Origin: a virus
Lineage: Duplodnaviria; Heunggongvirae; Uroviricota; Caudoviricetes
Strand: one strand, 5' to 3'
IMG/VR virus record: IMGVR_UViG_2778261161_000002
DNA length: 64,000 bases
This document shows, in pieces, positions 884 to 19,164 of this stretch; position 1 is the first letter of the stretch; each line of letters begins with the position of its first letter. Under the pieces are notes generated by a model. The model did not search any database and was not told where the DNA came from. It saw only the letters and a program-made list of their open reading frames with translations. Made by a program: the position numbers and the translations under genes.

Positions 884-1329
884 TGGGTAACTTTGGAAAT
901 TATTTCATTTTTATCATGGCATTTGTTGCCATCATTGACCGTTTCATTTTTCGTCGCAAGAGTGTTGAGATTTTGAGTATTGGTGACGCTGTAGTGAAAG
1001 AATCCGCTATAGCATTTCCTGTTTCGCTACGTGTTAAGCGAAGCTGGGTCAGCAATGCTCAAATCGAATATTGGTTGCAAGACCTGAAAAATCCATCTGT
1101 GGTTATTTCAGGGAAAACGCGACCAGTTGACGCCTCAAAACGCGGTGAGAGAGAAGAGTATTTGCTCATCGATACGAAATATCTTGAGCCAACGAAGTGG
1201 GATCTGAAAGTCACATTGACTAACGGTAACTGCCGACTGAATCCGCTTTATCGCATTTTCCCTATCAATGACTGCATAGAGCGCCAGTTTACGATCGAAA
1301 AGCGTGAAGGAGACTGGGATGTCAAATAA
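883..1329 (+). CDS. Hypothetical protein (LydB-like position), 148 aa
   Basis: ORF track; start overlaps stop of upstream ORF (ATGA coupling). Confidence 0.35.
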   Translation: MGNFGNYFIFIMAFVAIIDRFIFRRKSVEILSIGDAVVKESAIAFPVSLRVKRSWVSNAQIEYWLQDLKNPSVVISGKTRPVDASKRGEREEYLLIDTKYLEPTKWDLKVTLTNGNCRLNPLYRIFPINDCIERQFTIEKREGDWDVK

Positions 1330-1939
1330 GAATAATTATGTTCTTCTTAATTATGCTGAATTAAACGAAAAGGGGCTGGCAAAACTCGTCAAAGAAATCA
1401 GCAAAGGTGGTTACAAGATAGCGAGGGTGATCCCTGCAAGTAATGGCAGGAAGAAAGATGGGATCATGACGCGCACGTTTACCCTTATTGGTATTGATGA
1501 ACAGACAATGGAAGTTCAGGTTAACGATACCGGCGATATATCTGGGATCAAACTGAATGGTAAAACAGTACCGTTCAAGCCAGTAAAAACAATGTCGGCT
1601 TTGGGGCAATCTCTTGCGGCTTTATTTAATCGCGGAGCAACTTCTTTCCAGAAGTCATTAGCTCGAAAACTTGCTCGTGCAGCAAAAAATATTGATGACG
1701 GAAATAAGAAGCGGCAGGGAGTTAAATCTAACGCTCAGAAATTAGCTGAAGCGAAAGAATCACGTGATGCACTCCGTGAAGATATCGCTAATGCTAACGA
1801 CAAACTGTCTAAACTCCAGAGCAAGTCAGACAAAGTAATGCAAGATACGGGTAACGTTAAAGCTGCCTTGTCTCAGGAAGTAGCTAAGACACGTGCTCTT
1901 AAAGAAGAAATCGCGCGTCTGGAGGATGAGCATGATTAA
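1319..1939 (+). CDS. Hypothetical coiled-coil protein of dar-like operon
   Basis: ORF track; start moved to ATG at 1319 preceded by AAGGAG; K/A/E-rich coiled-coil C-terminus. Confidence 0.5.
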   Translation: MSNKNNYVLLNYAELNEKGLAKLVKEISKGGYKIARVIPASNGRKKDGIMTRTFTLIGIDEQTMEVQVNDTGDISGIKLNGKTVPFKPVKTMSALGQSLAALFNRGATSFQKSLARKLARAAKNIDDGNKKRQGVKSNAQKLAEAKESRDALREDIANANDKLSKLQSKSDKVMQDTGNVKAALSQEVAKTRALKEEIARLEDEHD

Positions 1940-3875
1940 CAATCCTTTACGAATTAATATTCAGTCTACTTTTGCTGATACGATCCCCGGCTATATGCCA
2001 AGTCGCTGGTCTTCAGAAGAATTAAGCGAAGATGACCTGATTTTTGAGGCGGCGACCTTAGAAGATATTGAGCTTGCCTATATGGGCAATGAAATTCTGG
2101 TTGTGTCTGACGAAGCTATGTTTGAGTCCATAACTACAACCAGAATTCGGTTAGCTCAAACAATGCGAGCTTTCGTCCGTGCGCTGAATCGTGGCCTGAA
2201 TGGTACGAATATTATGGCAGGGACTGATGAAGCTGGGACCGATGAAAATGGACGTAATTGTATTGGTGGTGCGATTATCGGTCGTGTACGTCGGGTAGCT
2301 AATATCCCTGTTTTGACCGCGCAGATACCGCTTACTGACGGGCAGAGTACAAGCATAATTTTCCACTCTCCAACAGCTGACGGGGCAAAAATAAAGAGTA
2401 ACGACGAGCTTGTTGCATTTCAGTTTTTACTTAATAAGCGTAACGTAACTCACGTTGTCGCCCCGATTGGTGGGAGAGATGTTTCTTTAAGCCAGGTATG
2501 CCAGGCGCTATCTAATTTGATTGAGCGTAACAGCGAAAAATTTAAGAAAGCAAAAGAGCGCCAGGACAAAATGAAGGCAGATATTGAGAGTTATCTCAAT
2601 GAAGCAGATAAACTGGCAGAAGAACGGTCAATAATGATTGATCAGGTGGACGTTGCGCAACGTGGGCTGACTGAAAAGCGTGCTGCTCTTACGGAGATGC
2701 AAAAAAAACTTGATGCCCAGAAAGCTATCAATGAGGAATTACAAGCAAAACGCGATAAATTGTTGTCTGCTAAAGGTGAAAAAACGAAAGAACGAGCGTT
2801 TAGTGACCAGCTGCGACATGTAAAACATAATCTTGCCATTGACGGAAAAACAGTGCTTGATAATGGCGCTGAAGTTAATTATGTCACGTCCGGCAGTGAC
2901 AATTTCGTTACGATAGTAGCACCTGAAGGTAAATTCAGTATTGATGCCAGTGCTGTCAAAGGAGGCAGTTTGGCAGATGCTGCAACCAAATTACTTAAAG
3001 CCTACCGAGAGCATAACGCAGATAAATATAAAGTTGATGTGTTACCAGGCCAGTTGGAAGACTCCGAACCACCACAGACAGACCCCGAAACGAACCCAGT
3101 ATTACAACCAGAGAGCCAAGATGTAGGTGAATACCACTATGCACTTCAATCTCGCCCGGCTGGTGTTGGTGCTGTTCCGGATGGAAATAAAGCCGTGCTT
3201 GATCGTCCTGACCAGGCTGATCAGTATTACGAATATGCTCGTCACGGTATCATTACGTATGACCGTAAACTGACAGATGAAGAAGTCAGCCAGTACGAGT
3301 TGCTTTATCTTCCTGATGAAGATGAGCTGAAAGATTTTGCAGGCCAATTGGTTGCGTCCAGCATGTCGAAACATATTGATGGCTATGTGGACCTGTTTGG
3401 CAGTGACCTGAAAACATTCAAGGCGCAAGTGAAAATTCTTTTCCGCAAAGCGTTTCCAAACGTGGCGTATCCACTTAGTGATGGGGAGAACCTTTTCATT
3501 ATGGACGTGTATAACGCCCTTCAAAATCATTCAAGCGAAGTAAAAACAGAGCATGTGGTTGAGCCAGAATCACAACCACAACCACAACCACAACCACAAC
3601 CAGCACCAGAACAGGAGTCGGAGCCAGAAGAAGCGGGTGAATCAGCAAGTGAAGCTGATCAGGAAGCAGATAAAGCGCTGGAGTACCTGAAATCCGTGCC
3701 GGAGCAGTTTACATCCCGCGATCTGACGGTCATCAGTGCTGAACTTGATCATGTGCAGGAAGCAGCAAACGCTCTAATCAGTGCAGGTCGATACGACGAG
3801 AACGAAGCCACTGTGGGTGCAGCAGTTGACTACCTGATCAATATTCTGGCTGAAATTCAGCAGGGAGGTGTTTAA
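1932..3875 (+). CDS. Large acidic protein with (QP)n linker, DarA-like by size and synteny
   Basis: ORF track; GGAGG upstream of ATG 1932; internal ESQPQPQPQPQPAPEQESEPEE linker; about 650 aa. Confidence 0.4.
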   Translation: MINNPLRINIQSTFADTIPGYMPSRWSSEELSEDDLIFEAATLEDIELAYMGNEILVVSDEAMFESITTTRIRLAQTMRAFVRALNRGLNGTNIMAGTDEAGTDENGRNCIGGAIIGRVRRVANIPVLTAQIPLTDGQSTSIIFHSPTADGAKIKSNDELVAFQFLLNKRNVTHVVAPIGGRDVSLSQVCQALSNLIERNSEKFKKAKERQDKMKADIESYLNEADKLAEERSIMIDQVDVAQRGLTEKRAALTEMQKKLDAQKAINEELQAKRDKLLSAKGEKTKERAFSDQLRHVKHNLAIDGKTVLDNGAEVNYVTSGSDNFVTIVAPEGKFSIDASAVKGGSLADAATKLLKAYREHNADKYKVDVLPGQLEDSEPPQTDPETNPVLQPESQDVGEYHYALQSRPAGVGAVPDGNKAVLDRPDQADQYYEYARHGIITYDRKLTDEEVSQYELLYLPDEDELKDFAGQLVASSMSKHIDGYVDLFGSDLKTFKAQVKILFRKAFPNVAYPLSDGENLFIMDVYNALQNHSSEVKTEHVVEPESQPQPQPQPQPAPEQESEPEEAGESASEADQEADKALEYLKSVPEQFTSRDLTVISAELDHVQEAANALISAGRYDENEATVGAAVDYLINILAEIQQGGV

Positions 3876-4243
3876 TGACCATCTCTGTTTTAGACCGCCT
3901 GAAATTAGGTAAAGAGCTATCAGATCTAATGCAGGCGCAGAAAACTGCGCCAGTATTGCAACGCGTCACCATTGGTAAGCAGATTGTTGATGTGATGCTG
4001 AAATTGGGCCTGGGGACTGCCGCGCAACCGGCAGCGGAACCGCAACAACAGGCTGATCCTGTTGTAGATGAAGTCCCTAAGATAGTGACTGACTTCCTGG
4101 GCGGTGTGTTCACAAAGTCCACACAAATGGAATTTATTGATGCGCTGCGTGGGATCTCAAACTATGTTGGCGAGTTCCTTACGTTGGAGCAGGCTAAAGA
4201 GCAGACCATAAGCTGGGTGAAAGCTAACGGTTATGCCGGGTAA
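3875..4243 (+). CDS. Hypothetical protein, 122 aa (DdrA-like position)
   Basis: ORF track; ATGA overlap with upstream gene. Confidence 0.4.
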   Translation: MTISVLDRLKLGKELSDLMQAQKTAPVLQRVTIGKQIVDVMLKLGLGTAAQPAAEPQQQADPVVDEVPKIVTDFLGGVFTKSTQMEFIDALRGISNYVGEFLTLEQAKEQTISWVKANGYAG

Positions 4244-4249
4244 TCAAAA

Positions 4250-4268
4250 GGGGCTGAAATGCCCCTTT
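4250..4268 (+). terminator. Hairpin AGGGGC-tgaaat-GCCCCT after operon segment
   Basis: Inverted repeat read directly; weak T-run. Confidence 0.4.
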
Positions 4269-4325
4269 CACTTATCTGTTCTCACATAAATCACACACTT
4301 TTTACACTCACAGCTTTCTCTATAG

Positions 4326-5723
4326 TTGGAGTGTATTTTGAACAAATCAGTTACTTCTGCGCTTTCCGAGGCCGCAGATATTAACAGCGTCATTGCTCTG
4401 GTTTCTTCATTAGAGAGGAAAGAAACACACCTGGGGCGAAGTAGCTACGTAGTCACCAGCAAAGGTGCAGAGGTAAAGACGGCTTTTAAGGTCGTTGATG
4501 CCAGCAGTCTGATCATTTCGAACAACCTTGACGGTACGATTAACCCGGCCTTCCCGGAAGAACTCCAACCACGAGATCGTACCCGGCTATCCAGCAAACT
4601 CCAGGTTAACCGTATTGCCTCCAATTTACGCCCGGCACAATTAACGGATTCCGGTATGAGCAGCCACGGAGCGCCTATAGTTGGTCCGGACAACGTTGTT
4701 GAATCCGGCAACGGAAGGAGTATGGGTATCTGGCGTGCCTATGAGCAAGGACAGGCGGATGAGTATCGCCAGTACCTGATCGACCATGCGAAAGAGTTTG
4801 GTCTGAATCCTGACGAAATTTCGCAAATGTCTATGCCCGTACTGGTGCGAGAAAGACTCACAGATGTAGACCGCGCTCAATTTGCCCGCGATTCAAACAT
4901 TAGCGATCTGCAAGAGATGGCAGCAAGTGAAAAAGCGTATGCGGATGCGCAATTTCTCACTGAGAGCGTCATGGCGCTATTTAATCCTTCAGATGATGGA
5001 AATCTGCTGGCGCGGTCCAATGATGCGTTTATTCGTGCGTTTTTGCGCGAAATTGGCGATACAGCGACGGCAGGCTTGCTTACTGCCGATGGGCGTCCCA
5101 CGAAACAGCTTATCGATCGCATCCAGAATGCAATTTTTGCCAAAGCGTACAAGGATGAAAGGCTTGTTCGGCTGGTGTCGGAAGAGCCAGATCCGGAAAT
5201 GCGTAATATCCTGACCGCATTAAATACGGCAGCCAGCGATTTTGCGCAAATGCAGTCGCTGTCTGGCGACGCTCACCATGACGCAGTAACAGGCTTAGTG
5301 GACGGTATAGAGCAGGTTAATGGCCTGGATACACAGGCGATAGCAGCACTCCAGGAAGCAATTAATCTTGTACGTGAAGCCAAAGACAACGGTCAGGCCG
5401 TTGAAGAAGTGATCGCCCAAAGGGGGTTATTCGGCGACAGTACACCGGAAGCTGAGGCATTGGCGCTATTCATCGTAGCAAATAATCGCAGTGCGAAGCG
5501 TATGGGGGCAGCATTCAAAAAAATGGCGCAAAAAATCAACGACGAGCTGACTCATAAACAACAGGCATTGGGCGATATGTTCGGCGGTGGCGATGTTGAT
5601 CTGCGTCGTATTTTGTCTGCTGTATCTGATGAAATTGAGGGTGAATTTGGCGAAGGGAAAGGTCTGAACTTTGCTATGTTTGAAAATTCTACGGATCTAA
5701 ATAATTGCCGTACGGAAAACTAA
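4326..5723 (+). CDS. ParB/sulfiredoxin-like nuclease-domain protein, 465 aa
   Basis: N-terminal region ELQPRDRTRLSSKLQVNRIASNLRPAQL ... VVESGNGRSMGIWRAY resembles ParB N-terminal domain; non-ATG (TTG) start implied by ORF track. Confidence 0.45.
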   Translation: MECILNKSVTSALSEAADINSVIALVSSLERKETHLGRSSYVVTSKGAEVKTAFKVVDASSLIISNNLDGTINPAFPEELQPRDRTRLSSKLQVNRIASNLRPAQLTDSGMSSHGAPIVGPDNVVESGNGRSMGIWRAYEQGQADEYRQYLIDHAKEFGLNPDEISQMSMPVLVRERLTDVDRAQFARDSNISDLQEMAASEKAYADAQFLTESVMALFNPSDDGNLLARSNDAFIRAFLREIGDTATAGLLTADGRPTKQLIDRIQNAIFAKAYKDERLVRLVSEEPDPEMRNILTALNTAASDFAQMQSLSGDAHHDAVTGLVDGIEQVNGLDTQAIAALQEAINLVREAKDNGQAVEEVIAQRGLFGDSTPEAEALALFIVANNRSAKRMGAAFKKMAQKINDELTHKQQALGDMFGGGDVDLRRILSAVSDEIEGEFGEGKGLNFAMFENSTDLNNCRTEN

Positions 5724-5787
5724 ACCAACCGCTGAAATCACATACTGATTATGCTGCCGCAAAACTGGAAACGATTTGCGGTGATTC

Positions 5788-7470
5788 ATGGCAACGAAAG
5801 ACAAAAACAAAGGCTTTCTGTCAGCATTGAAGAAAGCCTTCAACGGTGGTGATGTTACGCCCGCCGATCCGGTCGTTTTTACGAGCGGACATAGTGTCGT
5901 TGCTCGTTCCGGCCTGTCTGCTTTACGTCCAGGCATCCTGGGGAGCAATAGCGATGGCATGACGAGTGAGGCAGATTCAATTTCTTTATCCGCTGAACTG
6001 CCCGGCGAGCGCCTGCAAAAGTACAACATCCTGGAAACGATGGCTAAAAGCCCGACTATCTCGACGGCTTTAAACATTCACATTGCACATGCGCTTGCGC
6101 CTTCAAAAAAAACCGGACAGGCATTCATCCTTTCGCCAAAGGATGGTTCCGATGCCGAGGCAGTAAGTAGATGTGAAGAGTTAACCGCTGATTTGGGGGC
6201 GATGATTAATGACGGACTTCCTTCATGGGCCATGATCATGGCGATCTTTGGGGTGTCTTATGTCCGACCTTATGCTGAACAGGGCAGGGGGATAACAGGC
6301 ATTGAGTCCAGTTATTACACTCTGCCACATTTCGTCCAGGAATTTTATCGCGGTAGCCAGCTGGTTGGATTCAGTGGTGATTACATCCTGGATACGCATA
6401 GTTTGCGCAGAGTAATAACCGAACCGTGGAATCTGGTTTCCATGAAAAATCCCTATTGGACGCCACAGCATAAAGTTATTCCGGTTAGCTACGGCACAAA
6501 AGGGTACTCACTGTTAAGTGAGCAGGCTGATAAGCCGTTAATGGAGACGCAGAATTACGGAACTTCATTCCTGGAATACAGCTATGAACCTTACCTTAAT
6601 TTATGTGCTTCGCTCGCCGCGCTGAAATCAACGCGAAATAATGCAGCCAAAATTGACCGCCTGATTGCTCTTACGACGAACACACTGGACCCGGTTAATG
6701 CGGCGAACTATACGCGTGGCGTCAGCCAGGCATTGAAGCGTCATAGTGACCTGGTGGCGCAAAGGTCGATTAATGCCAACGCTATTCCGACTGTGCTTAA
6801 CCATCTGATACCTGTTATGGGAGACGGGAAGAACGGCATCACCATTGATACGCAATCCATACCCGCAGATATCAGTGGTATCGAAGACGTTATGTTTCAC
6901 CTCCGGCAGCTTGCTGCAAGCCTCGGCATTGACGCAACAATGCTTGGCTGGGCTGATCAGATGAGCGGAGGGCTTGGAGAAGGCGGCTGGCAGCAAACTG
7001 CTATCCAGGCTGCATTGCGTGCGAACTGGATCAGACAGGCCGCCCAGCGAACTATTTATCGGCTTCTGGACATTCACCTCGCTTATAAATACGGCAAGGT
7101 TTACACCGAAACAAACCGCCCTTATGACGTGCAATTCAACTCAATGAACACTGCTATCCAGGAAGAGGAAAACCGGGAACTGGATGCACGCGCCAACTTT
7201 GTTGCTGTCATCTCCCAAATTATGGACCAGATCCAGAACAACCCGAAACTGGCTGGTAGTGACGCGTTTATGCGTTATCTGTTCACTGAGCAGTTGCACA
7301 TCGACGATGACACTCTCAACACCATGATCAAAGAGTTTAAGGCGAATGAATCAGAGCAAAACAACGAGCATGGTATGTACGAATCCGCGCCGTTGTCGTC
7401 CGGTGACGATCCGGAAAACTGGACGCCAGAACAGTTAATAAACTTTGCAAAATTTGTGATGAGCAATTAA
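5788..7470 (+). CDS. Hypothetical large protein, 560 aa (possible virion/morphogenesis-associated)
   Basis: ORF track; no motif I can name with certainty. Confidence 0.45.
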   Translation: MATKDKNKGFLSALKKAFNGGDVTPADPVVFTSGHSVVARSGLSALRPGILGSNSDGMTSEADSISLSAELPGERLQKYNILETMAKSPTISTALNIHIAHALAPSKKTGQAFILSPKDGSDAEAVSRCEELTADLGAMINDGLPSWAMIMAIFGVSYVRPYAEQGRGITGIESSYYTLPHFVQEFYRGSQLVGFSGDYILDTHSLRRVITEPWNLVSMKNPYWTPQHKVIPVSYGTKGYSLLSEQADKPLMETQNYGTSFLEYSYEPYLNLCASLAALKSTRNNAAKIDRLIALTTNTLDPVNAANYTRGVSQALKRHSDLVAQRSINANAIPTVLNHLIPVMGDGKNGITIDTQSIPADISGIEDVMFHLRQLAASLGIDATMLGWADQMSGGLGEGGWQQTAIQAALRANWIRQAAQRTIYRLLDIHLAYKYGKVYTETNRPYDVQFNSMNTAIQEEENRELDARANFVAVISQIMDQIQNNPKLAGSDAFMRYLFTEQLHIDDDTLNTMIKEFKANESEQNNEHGMYESAPLSSGDDPENWTPEQLINFAKFVMSN

Positions 7471-7483
7471 CCGGAGGGAAATA

Positions 7484-8482
7484 ATGCAATCACTGAATAC
7501 TGTTACGGATCGCTTCTCCCTGGTAGAGAAAATCCGCAAACACACACCGCAGAACAACCGAAATTATGTCATTCAGTCGGTACGAGACACATTCAACTCG
7601 CCAGAAACAAAAGAGCGTATCGCGCTGGGTGAGATGTATGGTTATTACGGTCATGGTCGCCGGGCGATGCACTATAACAAAACGAAAAGCCTGAACTTGC
7701 CGGAAGTCTCTGTTGTGATGGTAGATGGGAAGCCTGTTGTATTGGAGAACGTGCCGTCAAACAGGACTATCGACATTTCGATTGACGACAACGGCATTGT
7801 TACGCATACGCAGGAAATACTGGATACAGACACCGGGCGTATTGTTCAGGGCATGATTAATTCTGGTGCTGGTGGTTGGTCGTGGGCTACATCTGGTCCA
7901 GATTCATCGGTATCCCTGGTAAAGTCTTTCCACGGCTTTGATTACGTAACTGTGCCTAACTATATCAGCCTCGACAAGAAAAGCCTGATGCTTGAATCAG
8001 CAGAAGAGCGCGATGCGGCTATTCATGCAGCACTTATCGAACAAGGTTTTACCGATAACGCTGCTACGGATCTGGTTCACCACTTTTCAGCAATGAAAAA
8101 TCAGCAAGCCATGCTCGAATCTGCACATCGTGAAGCCCTGGAATCAGAATTGATGCTCCTTGAAGTGGAAAACATACAGCTTCGAGATAAGCTGCGCGCT
8201 CAAACAGCGATGATGGAAAGCCAGGGGGAAAATGCAAAGCAATGCCGCCGGATTTTGCGTGACGCTATCCAGGAAATGCCTGTTTTTATCAGCGCAGAAC
8301 AGCGCCGGGCGCTCTGCCGTATGCAGTCTGAAGATGATGCCCGCATAGTGGCTGCGATGCTTGAATCTCTTGGGGCAAATGCTACTTATGGCTTACCGGT
8401 ATCAGGCAAGAAAGAACCAGAGTTATCACCGAAGGAGAACAAAAACACCACCCCGTTACTCTTCGTTTCTAGAAGGGGGTAA
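7484..8482 (+). CDS. Hypothetical protein, 332 aa
   Basis: ORF track; RBS GGAGGG upstream; coiled-coil C-terminal half. Confidence 0.45.
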   Translation: MQSLNTVTDRFSLVEKIRKHTPQNNRNYVIQSVRDTFNSPETKERIALGEMYGYYGHGRRAMHYNKTKSLNLPEVSVVMVDGKPVVLENVPSNRTIDISIDDNGIVTHTQEILDTDTGRIVQGMINSGAGGWSWATSGPDSSVSLVKSFHGFDYVTVPNYISLDKKSLMLESAEERDAAIHAALIEQGFTDNAATDLVHHFSAMKNQQAMLESAHREALESELMLLEVENIQLRDKLRAQTAMMESQGENAKQCRRILRDAIQEMPVFISAEQRRALCRMQSEDDARIVAAMLESLGANATYGLPVSGKKEPELSPKENKNTTPLLFVSRRG

Positions 8483-11856: not shown

Positions 11857-14800
11857 TTGGACAAACTACTTCATTCAATCAGTGAAGCCTCCAGCTTAGG
11901 CGAACTGATTGAAATTGTTAGTCGGTTGCATAAATTACGTGCTGTTGCGACCTTTGGCGTCAGGAAAGCCGATGGCGTCAGTATTCAGAAAACACGCCGG
12001 GCAGCAAACAATGCCGCAGTAAATCTTCTTAATTCCCTTCCGCCCGGCTTCGATGGGGCGAAATTAACTGACGAACAACGTCAGATTCTTGCTGGGTATA
12101 CCGGTGAAGGCGGCCTGACAGATGGTGAGGGCAGCCAATACGAATACTACACGCCACAGTTTATGGCTGAAGGTATATGGGATCTGTTTGCTGACTACGG
12201 TATTGATGGCGGGCACGTACTGGAACCATCAGCGGGCACAGGTATTTTCCAGGAGACAAAACGGCAGGGCATGATAATGACCAGCGCCGAACTGTCTCCG
12301 ATTTCTGGTCGAATAAACCAGCTTTTGCACCCGGAAGACGATGTGAATATCGGGGCGTTTGAGGCGCTGGCGGCGAAAGATGCAATGTATGACCACGCTG
12401 TTGGTAACGTACCGTTTGGTGAAGGGCGTTCCGGCGTTGCCGGGCTTGATCCGGCATATGCAAACGAGAAGAACGTTGGCAATTACTTTGTGCTGCGCAC
12501 GATCGACAAGGTTAAGCCTGGTGGGCTTATCGTATTGGTGGTGCCAAATGGCATGACCGATGGTACGAAATATAAAAAATTGCGCGATAAAGTCAGCCGT
12601 AAAGCGGAATTTTTGGGCGCGCATCGTATGCCTTCCGGTACGTTCAGTGAATCAGGTACAGATACCGTGGTGGACGTATGGGTATTGCGTAAACACCCGG
12701 AAGCCTTCCTGGAGATGATCCCCGATACGGATGATTCGACGCTCAAATCGGCAAACGTCCTTTGGGATACCTTCCTCAAAGGAAAATGGTTTACAACCGA
12801 AGGGAAGCGATTTGTTTACGGCGACATGGAACGTACCAGCTTCCGCAATACCCTGGTGGTGAAAAAAGACGGTCGTGTATCCAATGAGTCGATGAAAACC
12901 GCGCTATCTCGTCGCTTTGATAGTCGCATCAATTGGGATTTGCTCGGCGTAACTACTCAGGCATGGCAGGGCGCGAAAGTGGGCGATAAACGCCTTGTAG
13001 GCGGTATCTGGCATGAGTTTGATGGTCTGAAATGGGTTAAGGACACGACAACCAAATCCTCCGCGCTTGATGTAAGTCGATATGGTGTTTCGACGTTTGG
13101 CGATCTGCAGATCGCGTTCCAGTCAACAAACGGGATTCTGGCTTTGTCATGGGACCAGATATCGGCGATCGCGTCCGACTATCCATCGGTTGTCAGTGAT
13201 GAAGTGGCAGCAATGATTCGCTTTGCTGGCAAGCAGCGAGAAAAAGACAGGGAGCGCGTTATGCGCGGTGCACTGATAGGTCAGTTGATCAACAAGGCAC
13301 TTGATTTGCGTAACCTGGGGGTGAACGTTGATGACAAACTGGCAGATGCATCCCGCCTGGCGGCAGCAGAAGTTGCGAAGTATGGACCACCGCACGCGAT
13401 TAAGCTGAATGGGCTTGCTGAAGCTGGCGCTAAAAACTGGATGACGTTCACTGGCAATGTGAAACAGGATGGTTCCACTTCTGACCTTCTGGCAGGGCGA
13501 CTTGATGTAACGGATGGTGCTGCCGGTATTGACTTTACGCGTCCTGAACAAGTGATAGCACATCTTTTTAGTGATGTAGCCCTTAATCCTATAACGCTGG
13601 GCGACTTTCGTGAGGCGTTTGCTGGTGAACTGCCAGAGGACGACGACGCGGCCCTTGAATACCTGGCGAAATTTGATGATATCGCTATTGATGGGTATGG
13701 CTGTCTGCTGCCGATGGACCGCGCCACCAGCGGCGATGTTGCAACCAAAACAGCACTGCTGGTGGGTTGGCGTGATGCGTCAACAGGTGAGCAGAAAGCG
13801 AACTTTGAGCGTCAGTTGGCGAAAATCGAAGAGAAACGCATTTTCACGCCACTAAATAAAGTCACCGTTAATCTGAACGCCCGCTGGCTGGATCGCCGCT
13901 TGATAAAAGAGTTCCTGGCAGAGCAGGGCTATGACGAGTTTAAGTACACTGAACCTGATCTGAAGGTCGTCGATGGCATTCTGGTATCTCCGGACGATTA
14001 CGAAGGTAAGGACGGGGTATTTACCGGCTATCAGCTACGAACCGTAAACGGCAAAAACGGGAATGAGTTCAAGAAGGCCAACAATAAAGACGGCTTCCTG
14101 AACCAGTTAGAAAACTACCTGAACGGTGTTAAACCGCGTGGGCAGAACGCTAACGAGTACCTGGATAAAATTGCTCAACTGGAAGTTAGCTTTAACGACT
14201 GGTTACGCACTCACCCGCAGGCTGATCAGATAGCCCGCGAGTATAACGACGCATTCAATGGTTTCATTCCGTTCACGCATTCTGACGCACCGCTTGGCCT
14301 GGAAGGGATTAGTGGAAAGCGCATTCCTCTGACTTATCAGAATGAAGAAGTTCGGCGCTTGTCAGAAGATGGGCGCGGCATCATGGGATTTGGTACCGGG
14401 CTGGGTAAAACCACGACCGCGCTTGCGCTTGAGGCGTATAACTTCGAAACAGGTCGCACTAAACGCACGTGTATTGTTGTTCCGAAGGCGGTTTATCAGA
14501 ACTGGTATCACGAGGCACAGAGTTTCTACAGTGCTGATGCCTTCGCCAATATGATGTTTATCGGTTTGGATGAAGTTCGTGATGACAGCGGAAATATTCT
14601 GACCGCGCCGGTGCTTGATGAAAATGGCGAACCACGCCTCGACAGTAACGGGCAGCCTCTTACCAGAAATGTTGTGAAAGAGTCCGCCAGCGCCGTTATC
14701 GTTCAGCGCATGAACATGATCCCGTCGTCAAATTGGCGAACGGTCATCATGACAAAAGAACAATTCGCGTCTATCCCGCTACGAGAAAAAACCATCGAGG

Positions 14801-17800
14801 AGAACTCACAGCAAGCTGTCTTTAATGCTGTGGAAATGGGGCGTCTTGACCTGGCGTCTGGCAAACACCGTGATGCACAGAAGAAGAACAAGATTAAGGA
14901 TCAGGCCGCGAATACCGGTACAACGAAGAAGCAGAATATCCCGTACTTTGAGGATATGAACTTCGATAGCGTGATTGCCGACGAGGGGCATAACTACCGC
15001 AACTCCTTTAATGCCGGGCGTGAAGCGGGACAACTGGCATATTTGCCTAACCCGGCAGTATCCAAGATGGCCCGCGACATGGCTGTAAAAGCTGCGTACA
15101 TGATGAAACGCAACAACGGACGTGGTGTAGTCATGCTGACGGCAACTCCGCTGGTGAACAGTCCGATTGATGCCTTCAACATGCTGTCTACTGTCATTCC
15201 GCAGGAAGAGTGGATGCGCATGGGCATCATTACGCCTGATGATTTCGTTCGTGTGTTTGGCAAAACAGCCACAGTTCAGGTCCAGAAAATTTCCGGGGAA
15301 GTGGAAGAGAAGCAGGGGCTGGTGGGCTTCCAGAACCTTGATGGCCTGCGTGGTATTTTCCATCGTTGGACCACTCTGAAGACTGCCGCAGATGTCGGAG
15401 CGACGGTTAAAATTCCCGACATCATCGAGAACACCTTGCAGATCCCGATGACAGGGGAGCAGGAGTCTGCTTATGAAGAACTTCGTAAGCGTGCTCAGGA
15501 GTTAAGTCGCAATGATGAGCTGACAGTCGATGAAAACGGGCATATCACTAACGACAAACCGGATGATTTCATCTTCTCCATCATCCGTGACATGGACAAG
15601 GTTGCTATAGACCCGGATCTGTATGCCAGTGCGATTACATTCCAGTTCCCCGTTGAGCTTGCAGACCAGGTAAAAGCTATTGCTGATGCCTTGCCAAAAG
15701 TAGCTGGTGGTAAAGTGGCAGATGATGTTGATGAGGCCGAGGAAGACGGCGCTGGCGGGCTGGTCAGTACGCGTACCAGCAAGGTAGTGAAGACCGCTTT
15801 TAGTGAACATCCGACGCATGTTGAAATACGTGCCAGCATTGAACTGGAAGCTGAAATACTGAAGGCCATTGCGGCTGCCGGTATTGATATGCAGCAGGTA
15901 TCGCACCCCATCCCGCCGAAGTATGCCGCGCTGATCGAAAATCTTCGTGAAGGTCTGAAGAACGGTAAGCAGATCGTCTTTATTGATGAAAAAGCCCAGC
16001 ACCAGAAGCTGCGCCGTATTATCGCCAGTGCACTGCAAATGCCGGAGCAGGAGATTGGCATTATCAATGCGACGACAGTTAGCCAGGCTGGCGGCATCAA
16101 GCTGAAGAAGGTGAATAAGCCGACCGAACCTACTCCAAACAAAAACGGTGAATACAAAGAAGGGGCATGGGAAACCTACTACAGCAAACTTGCCCAATAT
16201 GAGGATTATCTCTCAGCTAAAAATGATGCTGGCCTTGAGGGCATGGAAGGTATTGCCGCCGACTATAACGAAGGTCGCACGCGCATCATAATCTGTAACA
16301 AGAAGGCTGAAGTAGGTATTAACCTGCACATCGGGACAACCGATATCCACCACCTGACACTACCCTGGACACCAGCCAGTATCGACCAACGAAATGGGCG
16401 CGGTGCGCGCATAGGTTCACCGCAAGAGAAGGTCAATGTTCACTACTATTGTGGCAAAGGCACATTCGACGACTTCCGTCTGGATACGCTGAAACGTAAG
16501 AAAGACTGGATCAAGATGGTGATGACCTCCGACATGTCAGAGATCGCCAATGGTGATGTGGATGATGCTGATGAACGCGCCATTATGCTGGCGGCAAACC
16601 CGGAAGAACGCCGCGCAATCATGGCTCGCCAGGCGCAAGAGCGTGAAGAACGTCTGAAACTGAAAGCACAGCGCGAGGCCAACAATGCTCTCGATATCTA
16701 CCTGAAAGCGGCAAACGCCGCCGGAAAAGATATCGGCATGATGGAGACAGAACTGAAAAGCGCGATGGAACAGATAGAGTATTACCAGCGCAATCTTGAC
16801 GACCTGATAAAAGCGGGTACGAACAGGAATGGGCAAAAATACGCGCTTGAGCAGTTGAGTAGCTACAGAAAACGTGCGCGGGTGCTGCGGTTTGCGATCA
16901 CCAGGGCAAAAGACGCGGATACCATAATGAAACGCTCTCGTGGTGATGTGGAGCGCGCTATTAAGTCTGGTGTGCTGGATATCAGTATCGATGTTATTCA
17001 GAACCCACAGGAATATATGCGCACTGACAAGAATATCCTGTTGCATAAAGGTAGTTATTACCGTGCAGTCATTGATGATCGCGAAACAACAGCGATTGTC
17101 CGGGTGGAAAAAATTGACGGTGAAAAAGCACAATACATCTGTCGTATCGCCTGGCTGGATAGAGCAAGTCGTTACGCTCGATCACCGGGGTCAATCGTTA
17201 CATTGCCGTTTGACTCTGTGATTGAAGCGGTAACTTTTGAAGAGGGGGTTGCTGAATCGCGCGCAACGGCTGCGCGTGGTGTTCAGTGCCACCAGCTATC
17301 AACAATACTTACTCGCGATCAGTTCTATGATGCTATTCGCAATGGGGTAATGAATGTTATTGCTGGTAAACCTGGTAATGCATGGGGCGGTGGATCAGCT
17401 ATTAAATACTGGGCATATCGCACAGAAGATGGTCAGATCGCGCTGTCATCGGCCTATGATGGCGTGATAGGCCAAAAAATCGGGCGAGCATCGGATATAG
17501 CACCTGAACGATGGATATATCCTGATGGCAACGACGAGGCGCTGAAGCGTGAAGTGGCAAAAATACAAGCCAGTGATAACCCGCTGAATATCGTGGACGG
17601 AGAGGGATTCCTCCAGGCATTGTATGGGTATGATTACATCCAGGGAATGCAGGCATGGGGCGCACAGGCAACGATGGATGATGTTGCCAAGGAGTTCGAA
17701 AACTGGATGGCTGGGCGTGGTCTGTCAGGTCGTTCGCTTAATAAAGTCACTTCTGAAGATATTCTTAGCTTGTTCCGTAAACCGTCCGGAGAAGGTCTGG

Positions 17801-18693
17801 AATCATTCTGGAGGACCGTGCTGGCATACCGTTTATTCCAGGGCAGGATGAAAGCCTTTAGCAATATCGATGATATTGAACGGATGTTTAATCAGGTCAA
17901 GATCGCGAAAATTAAGGCGAAGATCGAAAAAACACGTTCTGCGCTGGTGGCCTGGCGCGATGCATTGTTTGAGCAATATAAATCACTCAGTGATGCAGAT
18001 GGATGGGCGGCGCTGGAACAGTTGGCGAATAATGGGGTAGATGGGGCGAAACTCGCCATTGTCCAGGCTGATAACCCCCTGGAATCACCGGCAGCACAGT
18101 GGATTAAGGTGGGGGCTGTCATCAATGCATTTGATGAAAAACACATTAGTAAGGACGATTTTGCTGATGCTGTTTCTGTTAATCGCCTGGTAGAAATGGC
18201 TACCCGCCGCGCCCGTGAGTTGAAAGATGGCGACTATGTGAATGAGTTGCCGGATACGCTCAAATCGGCAACGTGGCAGGACTATGTATCGCTGAAAAAC
18301 GGCGGGGCCACTGAATCAGAGATCGCGGAAAGGCTTGAGCAGGCTGAAAGCAAAAGAGAAGAGCAGGCGGCAGTGGCTGAAGCCAGAGCTGATGAAGCGG
18401 CAAATGATGACTATATCATTGTGGTTAATGATAAGCCTATTCGCGCTAAGGCGCGTGTTCGCGGGCGCTGGTGGAGCGTCAGCGAGGACGTTGGCGCGGT
18501 TTATCTCATTGCCGACCAACCAGGTTCCTCGACAATACGGAACGCCAAAGACGCGATTAAGAAGATTGGCGGGCGTTTCTGGAATTTTGAAGTGAATCCG
18601 GTCGCGGATGTGGACTTTGACCGTCCGGCGTGGATGGTATCTACGCGTTACTCGGTAGATGAACTGCGTAAAATAATCGCCGATGCGGCTTAA
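11857..18693 (+). CDS. darB: Giant 2278-aa DarB-like protein: N-terminal N6-adenine MTase domain + SNF2/DExH helicase domain
   Basis: LEPSAGTGIF (motif I) and GNVPFGEG (motif IV-like); GFGTGLGKTTT Walker A; VIADEGHNYRN box II; DQRNGRGARIG motif VI; size matches P1 DarB. Confidence 0.7.
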   Translation: MDKLLHSISEASSLGELIEIVSRLHKLRAVATFGVRKADGVSIQKTRRAANNAAVNLLNSLPPGFDGAKLTDEQRQILAGYTGEGGLTDGEGSQYEYYTPQFMAEGIWDLFADYGIDGGHVLEPSAGTGIFQETKRQGMIMTSAELSPISGRINQLLHPEDDVNIGAFEALAAKDAMYDHAVGNVPFGEGRSGVAGLDPAYANEKNVGNYFVLRTIDKVKPGGLIVLVVPNGMTDGTKYKKLRDKVSRKAEFLGAHRMPSGTFSESGTDTVVDVWVLRKHPEAFLEMIPDTDDSTLKSANVLWDTFLKGKWFTTEGKRFVYGDMERTSFRNTLVVKKDGRVSNESMKTALSRRFDSRINWDLLGVTTQAWQGAKVGDKRLVGGIWHEFDGLKWVKDTTTKSSALDVSRYGVSTFGDLQIAFQSTNGILALSWDQISAIASDYPSVVSDEVAAMIRFAGKQREKDRERVMRGALIGQLINKALDLRNLGVNVDDKLADASRLAAAEVAKYGPPHAIKLNGLAEAGAKNWMTFTGNVKQDGSTSDLLAGRLDVTDGAAGIDFTRPEQVIAHLFSDVALNPITLGDFREAFAGELPEDDDAALEYLAKFDDIAIDGYGCLLPMDRATSGDVATKTALLVGWRDASTGEQKANFERQLAKIEEKRIFTPLNKVTVNLNARWLDRRLIKEFLAEQGYDEFKYTEPDLKVVDGILVSPDDYEGKDGVFTGYQLRTVNGKNGNEFKKANNKDGFLNQLENYLNGVKPRGQNANEYLDKIAQLEVSFNDWLRTHPQADQIAREYNDAFNGFIPFTHSDAPLGLEGISGKRIPLTYQNEEVRRLSEDGRGIMGFGTGLGKTTTALALEAYNFETGRTKRTCIVVPKAVYQNWYHEAQSFYSADAFANMMFIGLDEVRDDSGNILTAPVLDENGEPRLDSNGQPLTRNVVKESASAVIVQRMNMIPSSNWRTVIMTKEQFASIPLREKTIEENSQQAVFNAVEMGRLDLASGKHRDAQKKNKIKDQAANTGTTKKQNIPYFEDMNFDSVIADEGHNYRNSFNAGREAGQLAYLPNPAVSKMARDMAVKAAYMMKRNNGRGVVMLTATPLVNSPIDAFNMLSTVIPQEEWMRMGIITPDDFVRVFGKTATVQVQKISGEVEEKQGLVGFQNLDGLRGIFHRWTTLKTAADVGATVKIPDIIENTLQIPMTGEQESAYEELRKRAQELSRNDELTVDENGHITNDKPDDFIFSIIRDMDKVAIDPDLYASAITFQFPVELADQVKAIADALPKVAGGKVADDVDEAEEDGAGGLVSTRTSKVVKTAFSEHPTHVEIRASIELEAEILKAIAAAGIDMQQVSHPIPPKYAALIENLREGLKNGKQIVFIDEKAQHQKLRRIIASALQMPEQEIGIINATTVSQAGGIKLKKVNKPTEPTPNKNGEYKEGAWETYYSKLAQYEDYLSAKNDAGLEGMEGIAADYNEGRTRIIICNKKAEVGINLHIGTTDIHHLTLPWTPASIDQRNGRGARIGSPQEKVNVHYYCGKGTFDDFRLDTLKRKKDWIKMVMTSDMSEIANGDVDDADERAIMLAANPEERRAIMARQAQEREERLKLKAQREANNALDIYLKAANAAGKDIGMMETELKSAMEQIEYYQRNLDDLIKAGTNRNGQKYALEQLSSYRKRARVLRFAITRAKDADTIMKRSRGDVERAIKSGVLDISIDVIQNPQEYMRTDKNILLHKGSYYRAVIDDRETTAIVRVEKIDGEKAQYICRIAWLDRASRYARSPGSIVTLPFDSVIEAVTFEEGVAESRATAARGVQCHQLSTILTRDQFYDAIRNGVMNVIAGKPGNAWGGGSAIKYWAYRTEDGQIALSSAYDGVIGQKIGRASDIAPERWIYPDGNDEALKREVAKIQASDNPLNIVDGEGFLQALYGYDYIQGMQAWGAQATMDDVAKEFENWMAGRGLSGRSLNKVTSEDILSLFRKPSGEGLESFWRTVLAYRLFQGRMKAFSNIDDIERMFNQVKIAKIKAKIEKTRSALVAWRDALFEQYKSLSDADGWAALEQLANNGVDGAKLAIVQADNPLESPAAQWIKVGAVINAFDEKHISKDDFADAVSVNRLVEMATRRARELKDGDYVNELPDTLKSATWQDYVSLKNGGATESEIAERLEQAESKREEQAAVAEARADEAANDDYIIVVNDKPIRAKARVRGRWWSVSEDVGAVYLIADQPGSSTIRNAKDAIKKIGGRFWNFEVNPVADVDFDRPAWMVSTRYSVDELRKIIADAA

Positions 18694-18729: not shown

Positions 18730-19164
18730 ATGACGACACTAATTGACACTGTAAAACCGACGGAATCCTACCTTGAGGACATTTTGCCGCAGGCGCTCAA
18801 TGGCAGGAGTGAAGAGGCGTTTCTGGATGCATATCTGAATGGCATGGTGGAAAGGCTGAAACGAGATCCACAGCTTTATCACCTTTATGGGCCGTGGTGG
18901 CCTGCGCTTAAAACGTTATTGCTGGAGCGCGGCGACATATCATTTGGACAAGTTGTAGATAGTGATGTGGCAGAGATCTACAAAATGAGTCGCCCGGCGC
19001 TTACGGTTTTGGCTGGGCATCTGTATTCGAGCGATCGCCTGGAAAATGACGCGGTATACAATCCTGTTCATGCTCTGGAAGTCGCACCTTATGCCGATGA
19101 TACAGAGCCATACGTGTACACAAGTTACGACGAGTCTATAGAGAAATATCGAATCATGGGGTAG
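18730..19164 (+). CDS. Hypothetical protein, 144 aa
   Basis: ORF track. Confidence 0.45.
   Translation: MTTLIDTVKPTESYLEDILPQALNGRSEEAFLDAYLNGMVERLKRDPQLYHLYGPWWPALKTLLLERGDISFGQVVDSDVAEIYKMSRPALTVLAGHLYSSDRLENDAVYNPVHALEVAPYADDTEPYVYTSYDESIEKYRIMG

Follow-up and report, generated by a model that had tools for sequence, protein, structure and literature searches.

A short-form ddrB in the Dar operon of a D6-like plasmid prophage of Escherichia coli and its putative ParB-like nucleotide pocket

Phage P1 carries a set of head-internal anti-restriction proteins, the Dar system, whose protection works only in cis (PMC12707154). [quoted passage not shown] The first 30 residues of DarB are its capsid-targeting signal, and the map of the P1 head shows unassigned density around DarA (PMC12810830). 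P1 DdrB was recovered from purified virions with 39 unique peptides (59.5% coverage) and is listed there with the remark 'aids DarB addition to capsid' (PMC9024508). Processing of the protein to a form of ~76 kDa has been reported (PMC5512222). The N-terminal domain of DdrB belongs to a distinct type of ParB-like domain. Across the ParB fold the arginine of the GxxR motif is needed for NTP binding and its loss abolishes binding, while nucleotide preference is not predictable from sequence or from AlphaFold3 models (PMC12704722). This 2025 survey of the fold searched with PF02195 only, and the DdrB-type family lies outside its coverage (PMC12704722). Here, we compare a ddrB-like gene with these systems; it lies in a stretch of 64,000 nucleotides of a Caudoviricetes virus (IMG/VR record IMGVR_UViG_2778261161_000002), which we call the window.

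Sequence comparison identifies the gene as the orthologue of ddrB in a plasmid prophage of E. coli that is D6-like and related to P1. Its product of 461 amino acids (~50.1 kDa, pI 4.8) is 96% identical over 452 residues to the product of phage D6 orf25 (YP_009914702.1, 'similar to P1 gene ddrB'), which has the same TTG start, Shine-Dalgarno sequence and position after ddrA and is likewise a short form without a metallopeptidase half. The darA-ddrA-ddrB segment as a whole shows 93–96% amino acid identity to D6, and the flanking genes 99–100%. Residues 1–442 of P1 DdrB (YP_006491.1, 995 aa) are 64% identical to the window protein, a match that spans the whole core of ~440 residues. The gene family is already known: publications exist for the Dar system, for the DdrB-type ParB domain and for the orthologue in D6, and the annotation result itself is routine. 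In RefSeq the gene is called 'hypothetical protein' on plasmids of ~90–96 kb, which carry it in 99 of 5426 complete E. coli genomes. A family or model for the window protein is absent from NCBIfam, so the name ddrB could be propagated. The sequence-only reading that preceded this work had left this named family unrecognised.

The order lydA-lydB-hdf-darA-ddrA-ddrB of the late operon is conserved, with darB and ulx further downstream, and all six Dar genes fall within the window (Table 1). The immediate neighbors of ddrB are ddrA upstream and a portal gene downstream. Contigs of ~85–90 kb from Pantoea and Leclercia keep the order lydB-hdf-darA-ddrA-ddrB, and plasmid CP057047 is 99.3% identical over the matching stretch. 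An earlier description of the surroundings as an antirestriction-like operon therefore holds, since Pfam and PHROG identify Dar partners and D6 and P1 annotation place ddrB directly 3' of ddrA in the Dar operon. Taken as one whole, the observations are probably best explained by a gene that is ddrB, one of six Dar genes, whose product would have a P1-like role in the virion and a ParB-like NTP pocket.

Table 1. Features of the ddrB locus and its Dar partners, in positions of the window.
Feature	Position	Strand	Basis
hdf, DarA_N domain, Dar partner	1319..1939	+	Pfam DarA_N E=2.8e-17; 99% identical to D6 Hdf, start mapped
darA, Dar partner, head-internal scaffold for other Dar proteins	1932..3875	+	Pfam DarA_N E=5.4e-40, DarA_C E=2.2e-18; 94% identical to D6 DarA
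ddrA, Dar partner	3875..4243	+	PHROG 1855 'DdrA-like anti-restriction protein' E=4.8e-50; D6 annotation
8-bp GC-rich hairpin between ddrA stop and ddrB, no U-tract after	4247..4268	+	RNA fold
In-frame upstream extension with alternative TTG (4326), contains GGAG for TTG 4338	4326..4337	+	direct sequence read; same layout in D6
ddrB CDS, short form	4338..5723	+	ORF; D6 and P1 DdrB identity; 4338 corresponds to the D6 start
ParB/Srx-fold domain as modelled, residues 28–215	4419..4982	+	predicted structure
Pfam PF18763 ddrB-ParB domain, residues 42–173 from TTG 4338	4461..4856	+	hmmscan
Q77-P78-R79-D80-R81 loop	4566..4580	+	invariant columns of homologue alignment
G124-N125-G126-R127, GxxR P-motif (putative Box II equivalent)	4707..4718	+	invariant columns; modelled secondary structure
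All-alpha region, residues 216–441, no Pfam family, net charge ~-13	4983..5660	+	
51-bp segment replacing 1110 bp of D6 (DUF4145 gene and orf23)	5684..5734	.	blastn vs D6; D6 annotation
darB, 2278 aa, N6 methyltransferase and SNF2/SF2 helicase, TTG start	11857..18693	+	Pfam SNF2-rel_dom, ResIII, Helicase_C, N6_Mtase; 99.1% identical to D6 DarB
ulx, Dar partner	18730..19164	+	PHROG 1629 'Ulx-like anti-restriction' E=2.3e-59

The sequence-only reading had proposed a non-ATG start, and this proved correct: the first ATG in frame comes only at codon 111 of the 465-residue translation, within the ParB-like domain, and 5' of this domain canonical start codons are limited to TTG 4326 and TTG 4338. 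The position it had chosen (4326) is the less likely of the two. A Shine-Dalgarno sequence, GGAG, at 4328–4331 lies six bases 5' of TTG 4338, the RefSeq annotation of D6 uses the equivalent start, and the resulting 461 residues equal the length of the closest protein cluster (P0001, 1121 member sequences); on these grounds the start was set to 4338, 12 nt downstream. The reading frame closes with a TAA stop (5721–5723). Because of the TTG start, translation is probably inefficient. The hairpin in the 94-bp gap between ddrA and ddrB is unusually stable (-14.1 kcal/mol, z = -3.67, 0 of 200 shuffles equally stable) and was not called by the terminator scan; in a relative from Pantoea, a canonical terminator occupies this position. 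It is possibly an attenuator or an RNA-stability element, and we assume that transcription reads through it. A separate ddrB promoter was considered and rejected, as a sigma-70 scan gave no plus-strand promoter within 3800–6000 and the gap, inspected by eye, shows nothing like the -22 box of the P1 late promoter LPdar (AAGTTACTT). The antisense gene iddB of P1 was also considered; in both the window and D6 its homologous frame carries Ile instead of Met1 and stops at codon 12, and it is not a conserved gene.

The N-terminal ParB-like domain, claimed earlier from sequence and to be checked by profile search, is recovered as the Pfam family ddrB-ParB (PF18763; E=2.6e-42, 144.2 bits against a cut-off of 27.6, profile positions 2–120 of 121). 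Structure models of the protein (pLDDT 87.6 and 90.3) contain the core alpha+beta fold of the ParB/Srx superfamily, common to the ParB N-domain and sulfiredoxin, and arrange the domain as a beta hairpin, the QPR loop, a helix, two strands, a helix capped by GxxR, inserted helices with Tyr143, a strand and further helices. Structurally the domain comes closest to NTP-binding switches and kinases (KorB, PadC, SbnI, Srx, SerK), and the reported DNase Osa is not among the best matches. The link of DdrB to ParB rests on this comparison of predicted folds. At the level of sequence, hhalign of the DdrB alignment, both full length and domain only, against an alignment of B. subtilis, M. xanthus and T. 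thermophilus ParB gave probabilities of 0.3–1%, with a thin ParB profile of three sequences, and aligned only a PVLVR/PLIVR strand; phmmer and a profile hmmsearch against all PDB sequences returned no relative of the DdrB core and no ParB. One PDB sequence match, the portal 9b41 (E=4e-13), was discarded, as it stems from the inorganic pyrophosphatase (InPase) domain of other members of the alignment and not from the window protein. Because the ParB profile comparison was not significant and the PDB sequence searches gave no relative, the residue equivalences given below are drawn from the order of motifs and from secondary structure prediction only.

In an alignment of 70 diverse homologues, 36–83% identical to the query, Q77, P78, R79 and R81 are invariant, as are D118 (following the APIVG strand), Y135, Y143, R171 and R173, and the stretch V121-E-S-G-N-G-R127 is found in 70 of 70 sequences. 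The Q77-P-R79 loop would be the equivalent of the 'QPR' loop of ParB, in which Q52 and R54 of M. xanthus ParB have a role at the gamma-phosphate (bioRxiv 10.1101/2021.05.05.442810). In the models, the GxxR motif caps the N-terminus of helix 125–136 right after strand 120–123, which places R127 in line with the published definition of the family, and Y143 lies in an inserted helix (141–149) between helix 125–136 and strand 167–173; by our own mapping, D118 and Y143 probably correspond to the published features of DdrB-like ParB domains (PMC5512222). The loop and the GxxR motif together point to a putative NTP-binding pocket. The proposed check for CTP-binding residues thus had a mixed outcome. 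GxxR and QPR are present, but of the canonical GERR only the G and the last R are kept in GNGR, with an invariant Asn for the catalytic Glu and an invariant Gly for the second Arg, and a motif like Box III (ENLQR) is not recognizable in the DdrB alignment; in canonical ParB, roles have been assigned to the Box II and Box III residues E93, R94, E126, N127 and R130 (bioRxiv 10.1101/2021.05.05.442810).

These departures from the canonical pocket bear on the possibility that the ParB-like fold is inert with respect to both catalysis and nucleotide, and that DdrB is purely a structural adaptor, an internal head protein bridging DarA/DdrA and DarB. The catalytic Glu and Box III are missing, 17 of 28 purified ParB-fold proteins did not bind NTP in vitro (PMC12704722), and helping DarB to enter the capsid is the sole function reported for P1 DdrB in the literature consulted (PMC9024508). 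However, QPR, ESGNGR, Y135, Y143, R171 and R173 remain invariant in homologues down to 36% identity, including ones embedded in unrelated giant proteins, a pattern typical of an active or ligand site rather than of a scaffold surface, and the module is often fused to an inorganic pyrophosphatase. We consider a purely structural role rather unlikely, and favor a domain with a putative nucleotide pocket.

The term nuclease, which had been attached to the domain, is a historical name of the fold only. Of the earlier suggestion of a virion-associated nuclease or an anti-defense factor, the anti-defense and virion part is upheld by orthology to P1 ddrB, whose product is a head-internal Dar protein, and the nuclease part is not. 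A DdrB that acts as a virion-delivered, sequence-nonspecific DNase or nickase on host or competitor DNA, or that nicks phage DNA to start replication, would have precedents, since Osa, a ParB-methylase and GmrS have been reported with DNase activity and Iyer et al. devote a section to 'Novel ParB-like DNases' (PMC5512222). The same authors, however, judged NTP sensing or degradation likelier than DNase activity for the DdrB-like family (PMC5512222), the best structural matches do not include Osa, and a nuclease enclosed in the head alongside the genome would be a danger to it. The window protein is strongly acidic, and a computed net charge of -22 speaks against its binding DNA non-specifically. 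Moreover, P1 can dispense with ddrB, and the literature consulted mentions no phenotype of DNA degradation. We regard a DNase function as very unlikely.

A prophage ParB that serves plasmid partition or binds a centromere would share with DdrB only the common fold and the GxxR motif. Against it, hmmscan gave no PF02195 match at E<=1 and no match to an HTH or dimerization domain, the ParA-binding motif LG(R/K)GL is absent from the DdrB sequence, including its N-terminus, and the gene for this acidic protein sits in a late lysis/head operon. The corresponding stretches of D6 and plasmid CP057047 have no annotated parA or canonical parB, in agreement with the earlier remark that no parA/parS-like locus is adjacent. 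P1, whose ddrB orthologue lies in the late Dar operon, has a separate ParB for partition (PMC12704722). The probability of this reading is close to nil and it is refuted for practical purposes, as the sequence-only reading had anticipated in proposing a role other than partition.

Downstream of the ParB/Srx domain, the all-alpha region, which always accompanies it, carries the conserved motifs IFAKAY (266–271) and NNRSAKR (382–388). DdrB of the D6 type is thus a two-part bare core module, a ParB/Srx domain followed by an acidic all-alpha domain of ~230 residues. The C-terminal HExxH metallopeptidase (MPTase) domain is absent and the window protein ends at residue 461, ~20 residues past the core, whereas P1 DdrB has ~550 extra C-terminal residues with a metallopeptidase-like WHELGHH near residue 870; these could hold a part needed for DarB loading. 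In blastn comparison with D6, homology runs over 3801–5683 at 93.1% and over 5735–8000 at 99.0%. The breakpoint falls in the last ~13 codons of ddrB, and the last ~10 residues of the protein therefore differ from D6, as the window is without the 1.1-kb insert of a DUF4145 gene and orf23 that follows ddrB there.

That the reading frame ends ~20 codons past the core, at a recombination breakpoint, might suggest a functionless, decaying remnant truncated from a long P1-type DdrB, and a closer relative (cluster P0121, 970 aa), with a core 77% identical to that of the window protein, does keep the HExxH half (WHEAGHH), its C-terminal part being 30% identical to that of P1 DdrB. This explanation is highly improbable, since ddrB is under strong purifying selection (dN/dS 0.063, dS 0.27, window against D6) and an unbroken frame is found in 96 complete E. 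coli genomes as well as in the viable phage D6. Pantoea, Leclercia, Vibrio and Photobacterium also have short forms that share this boundary, and the cut falls exactly between domains.

Fusions in other phages bear on the place of the core module in the Dar system. The same module of ~410 residues is joined to DarA_N in two clusters (P0136, P0171) and to SF2 helicase and methyltransferase domains in three (P0177, P0212, P0210), Rosetta-stone fusions that link it functionally to DarA and DarB. Of 140 representative proteins with the module, 47 also contain an inorganic pyrophosphatase domain, which fits nucleotide chemistry. For the scheme that follows, orthology, operon, fold, motifs and selection come from the present analysis, the virion location, incorporation order and DarB loading are carried over from the P1 literature, and NTP binding and its role are inferred. 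By homology with P1, ddrB would be transcribed late together with lydA-lydB-hdf-darA-ddrA, and DdrB would follow the DarA/Hdf scaffold and DdrA into the procapsid. Inside, it would help to load the giant methyltransferase-helicase DarB, together with Ulx, and would then be ejected with the DNA, which would be protected in cis from type I restriction. Once in the cytoplasm, the ParB-like pocket may bind NTP, and DdrB would then serve, in concert with DarB and DarA, as a switch or a site of nucleotide processing, rather than binding a centromere or cleaving DNA.

A more specific and speculative proposal, which we consider improbable as it stands, casts the core of DdrB as an NTP-gated switch with the ParB-CTPase fold that is injected, being nucleotide-free in the capsid and NTP-bound on ejection. 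It could then, for example, dimerize, act on DarB by releasing or activating it, or contact the incoming DNA, and such gating, if true, would explain why Dar protects only co-packaged DNA. The ParB switch would also be put to anti-restriction use for the first time, and the proposal would provide a mechanism for a module found in thousands of phage polyvalent proteins outside the PF02195-based survey. Independent of this proposal, D6-type DdrB is the minimal natural form of the ~410-residue module, which is found in >6000 protein clusters, and with its high-confidence predicted structure and clearly delimited invariant pocket it is a convenient 50-kDa substrate for DdrB biochemistry, that is, for asking which nucleotide is bound, whether it is hydrolyzed and whether DarB is contacted.

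KorB (8QA8), PadC (6RYK) and chromosomal ParB/Spo0J are 13–14% identical to DdrB, with no significant sequence or profile match; DdrB has GNGR for GERR, no ENLQR, and extra helices between helix 2 and strand 4, and it is without an HTH, a C-terminal dimerization domain and a ParA or parS partner. With sulfiredoxin, SerK and SbnI, which are ATP/ADP-using enzymes of the ParB/Srx fold, and with the CdiA toxin domain ToxB no common substrate-binding residues were identified, and DdrB differs from them in its extra helical domain of ~230 residues and its virion context; it is not known to be toxic or to act as a kinase. P1 shares with the window the operon lydA-lydB-hdf-darA-ddrA-ddrB and the ddrB-ParB Pfam domain, but its ddrB starts with ATG and its downstream gene order differs (hxr, IS1). 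The modules of polyvalent proteins (Iyer et al., 2017; PMC5512222) correspond to ~410 residues (query ~30–441) in 6169 representative clusters, and have in common with DdrB the invariant QPR and ESGNGR, the conserved Tyr in the inserted helix and a late-gene or virion context. Among the relatives listed, the module is mostly contained in large proteins (median ~1200 aa, up to 4572 aa), fused to InPase, DarA_N, MPTase, ART, LPD, helicase or methylase domains, whereas in the window it stands alone.

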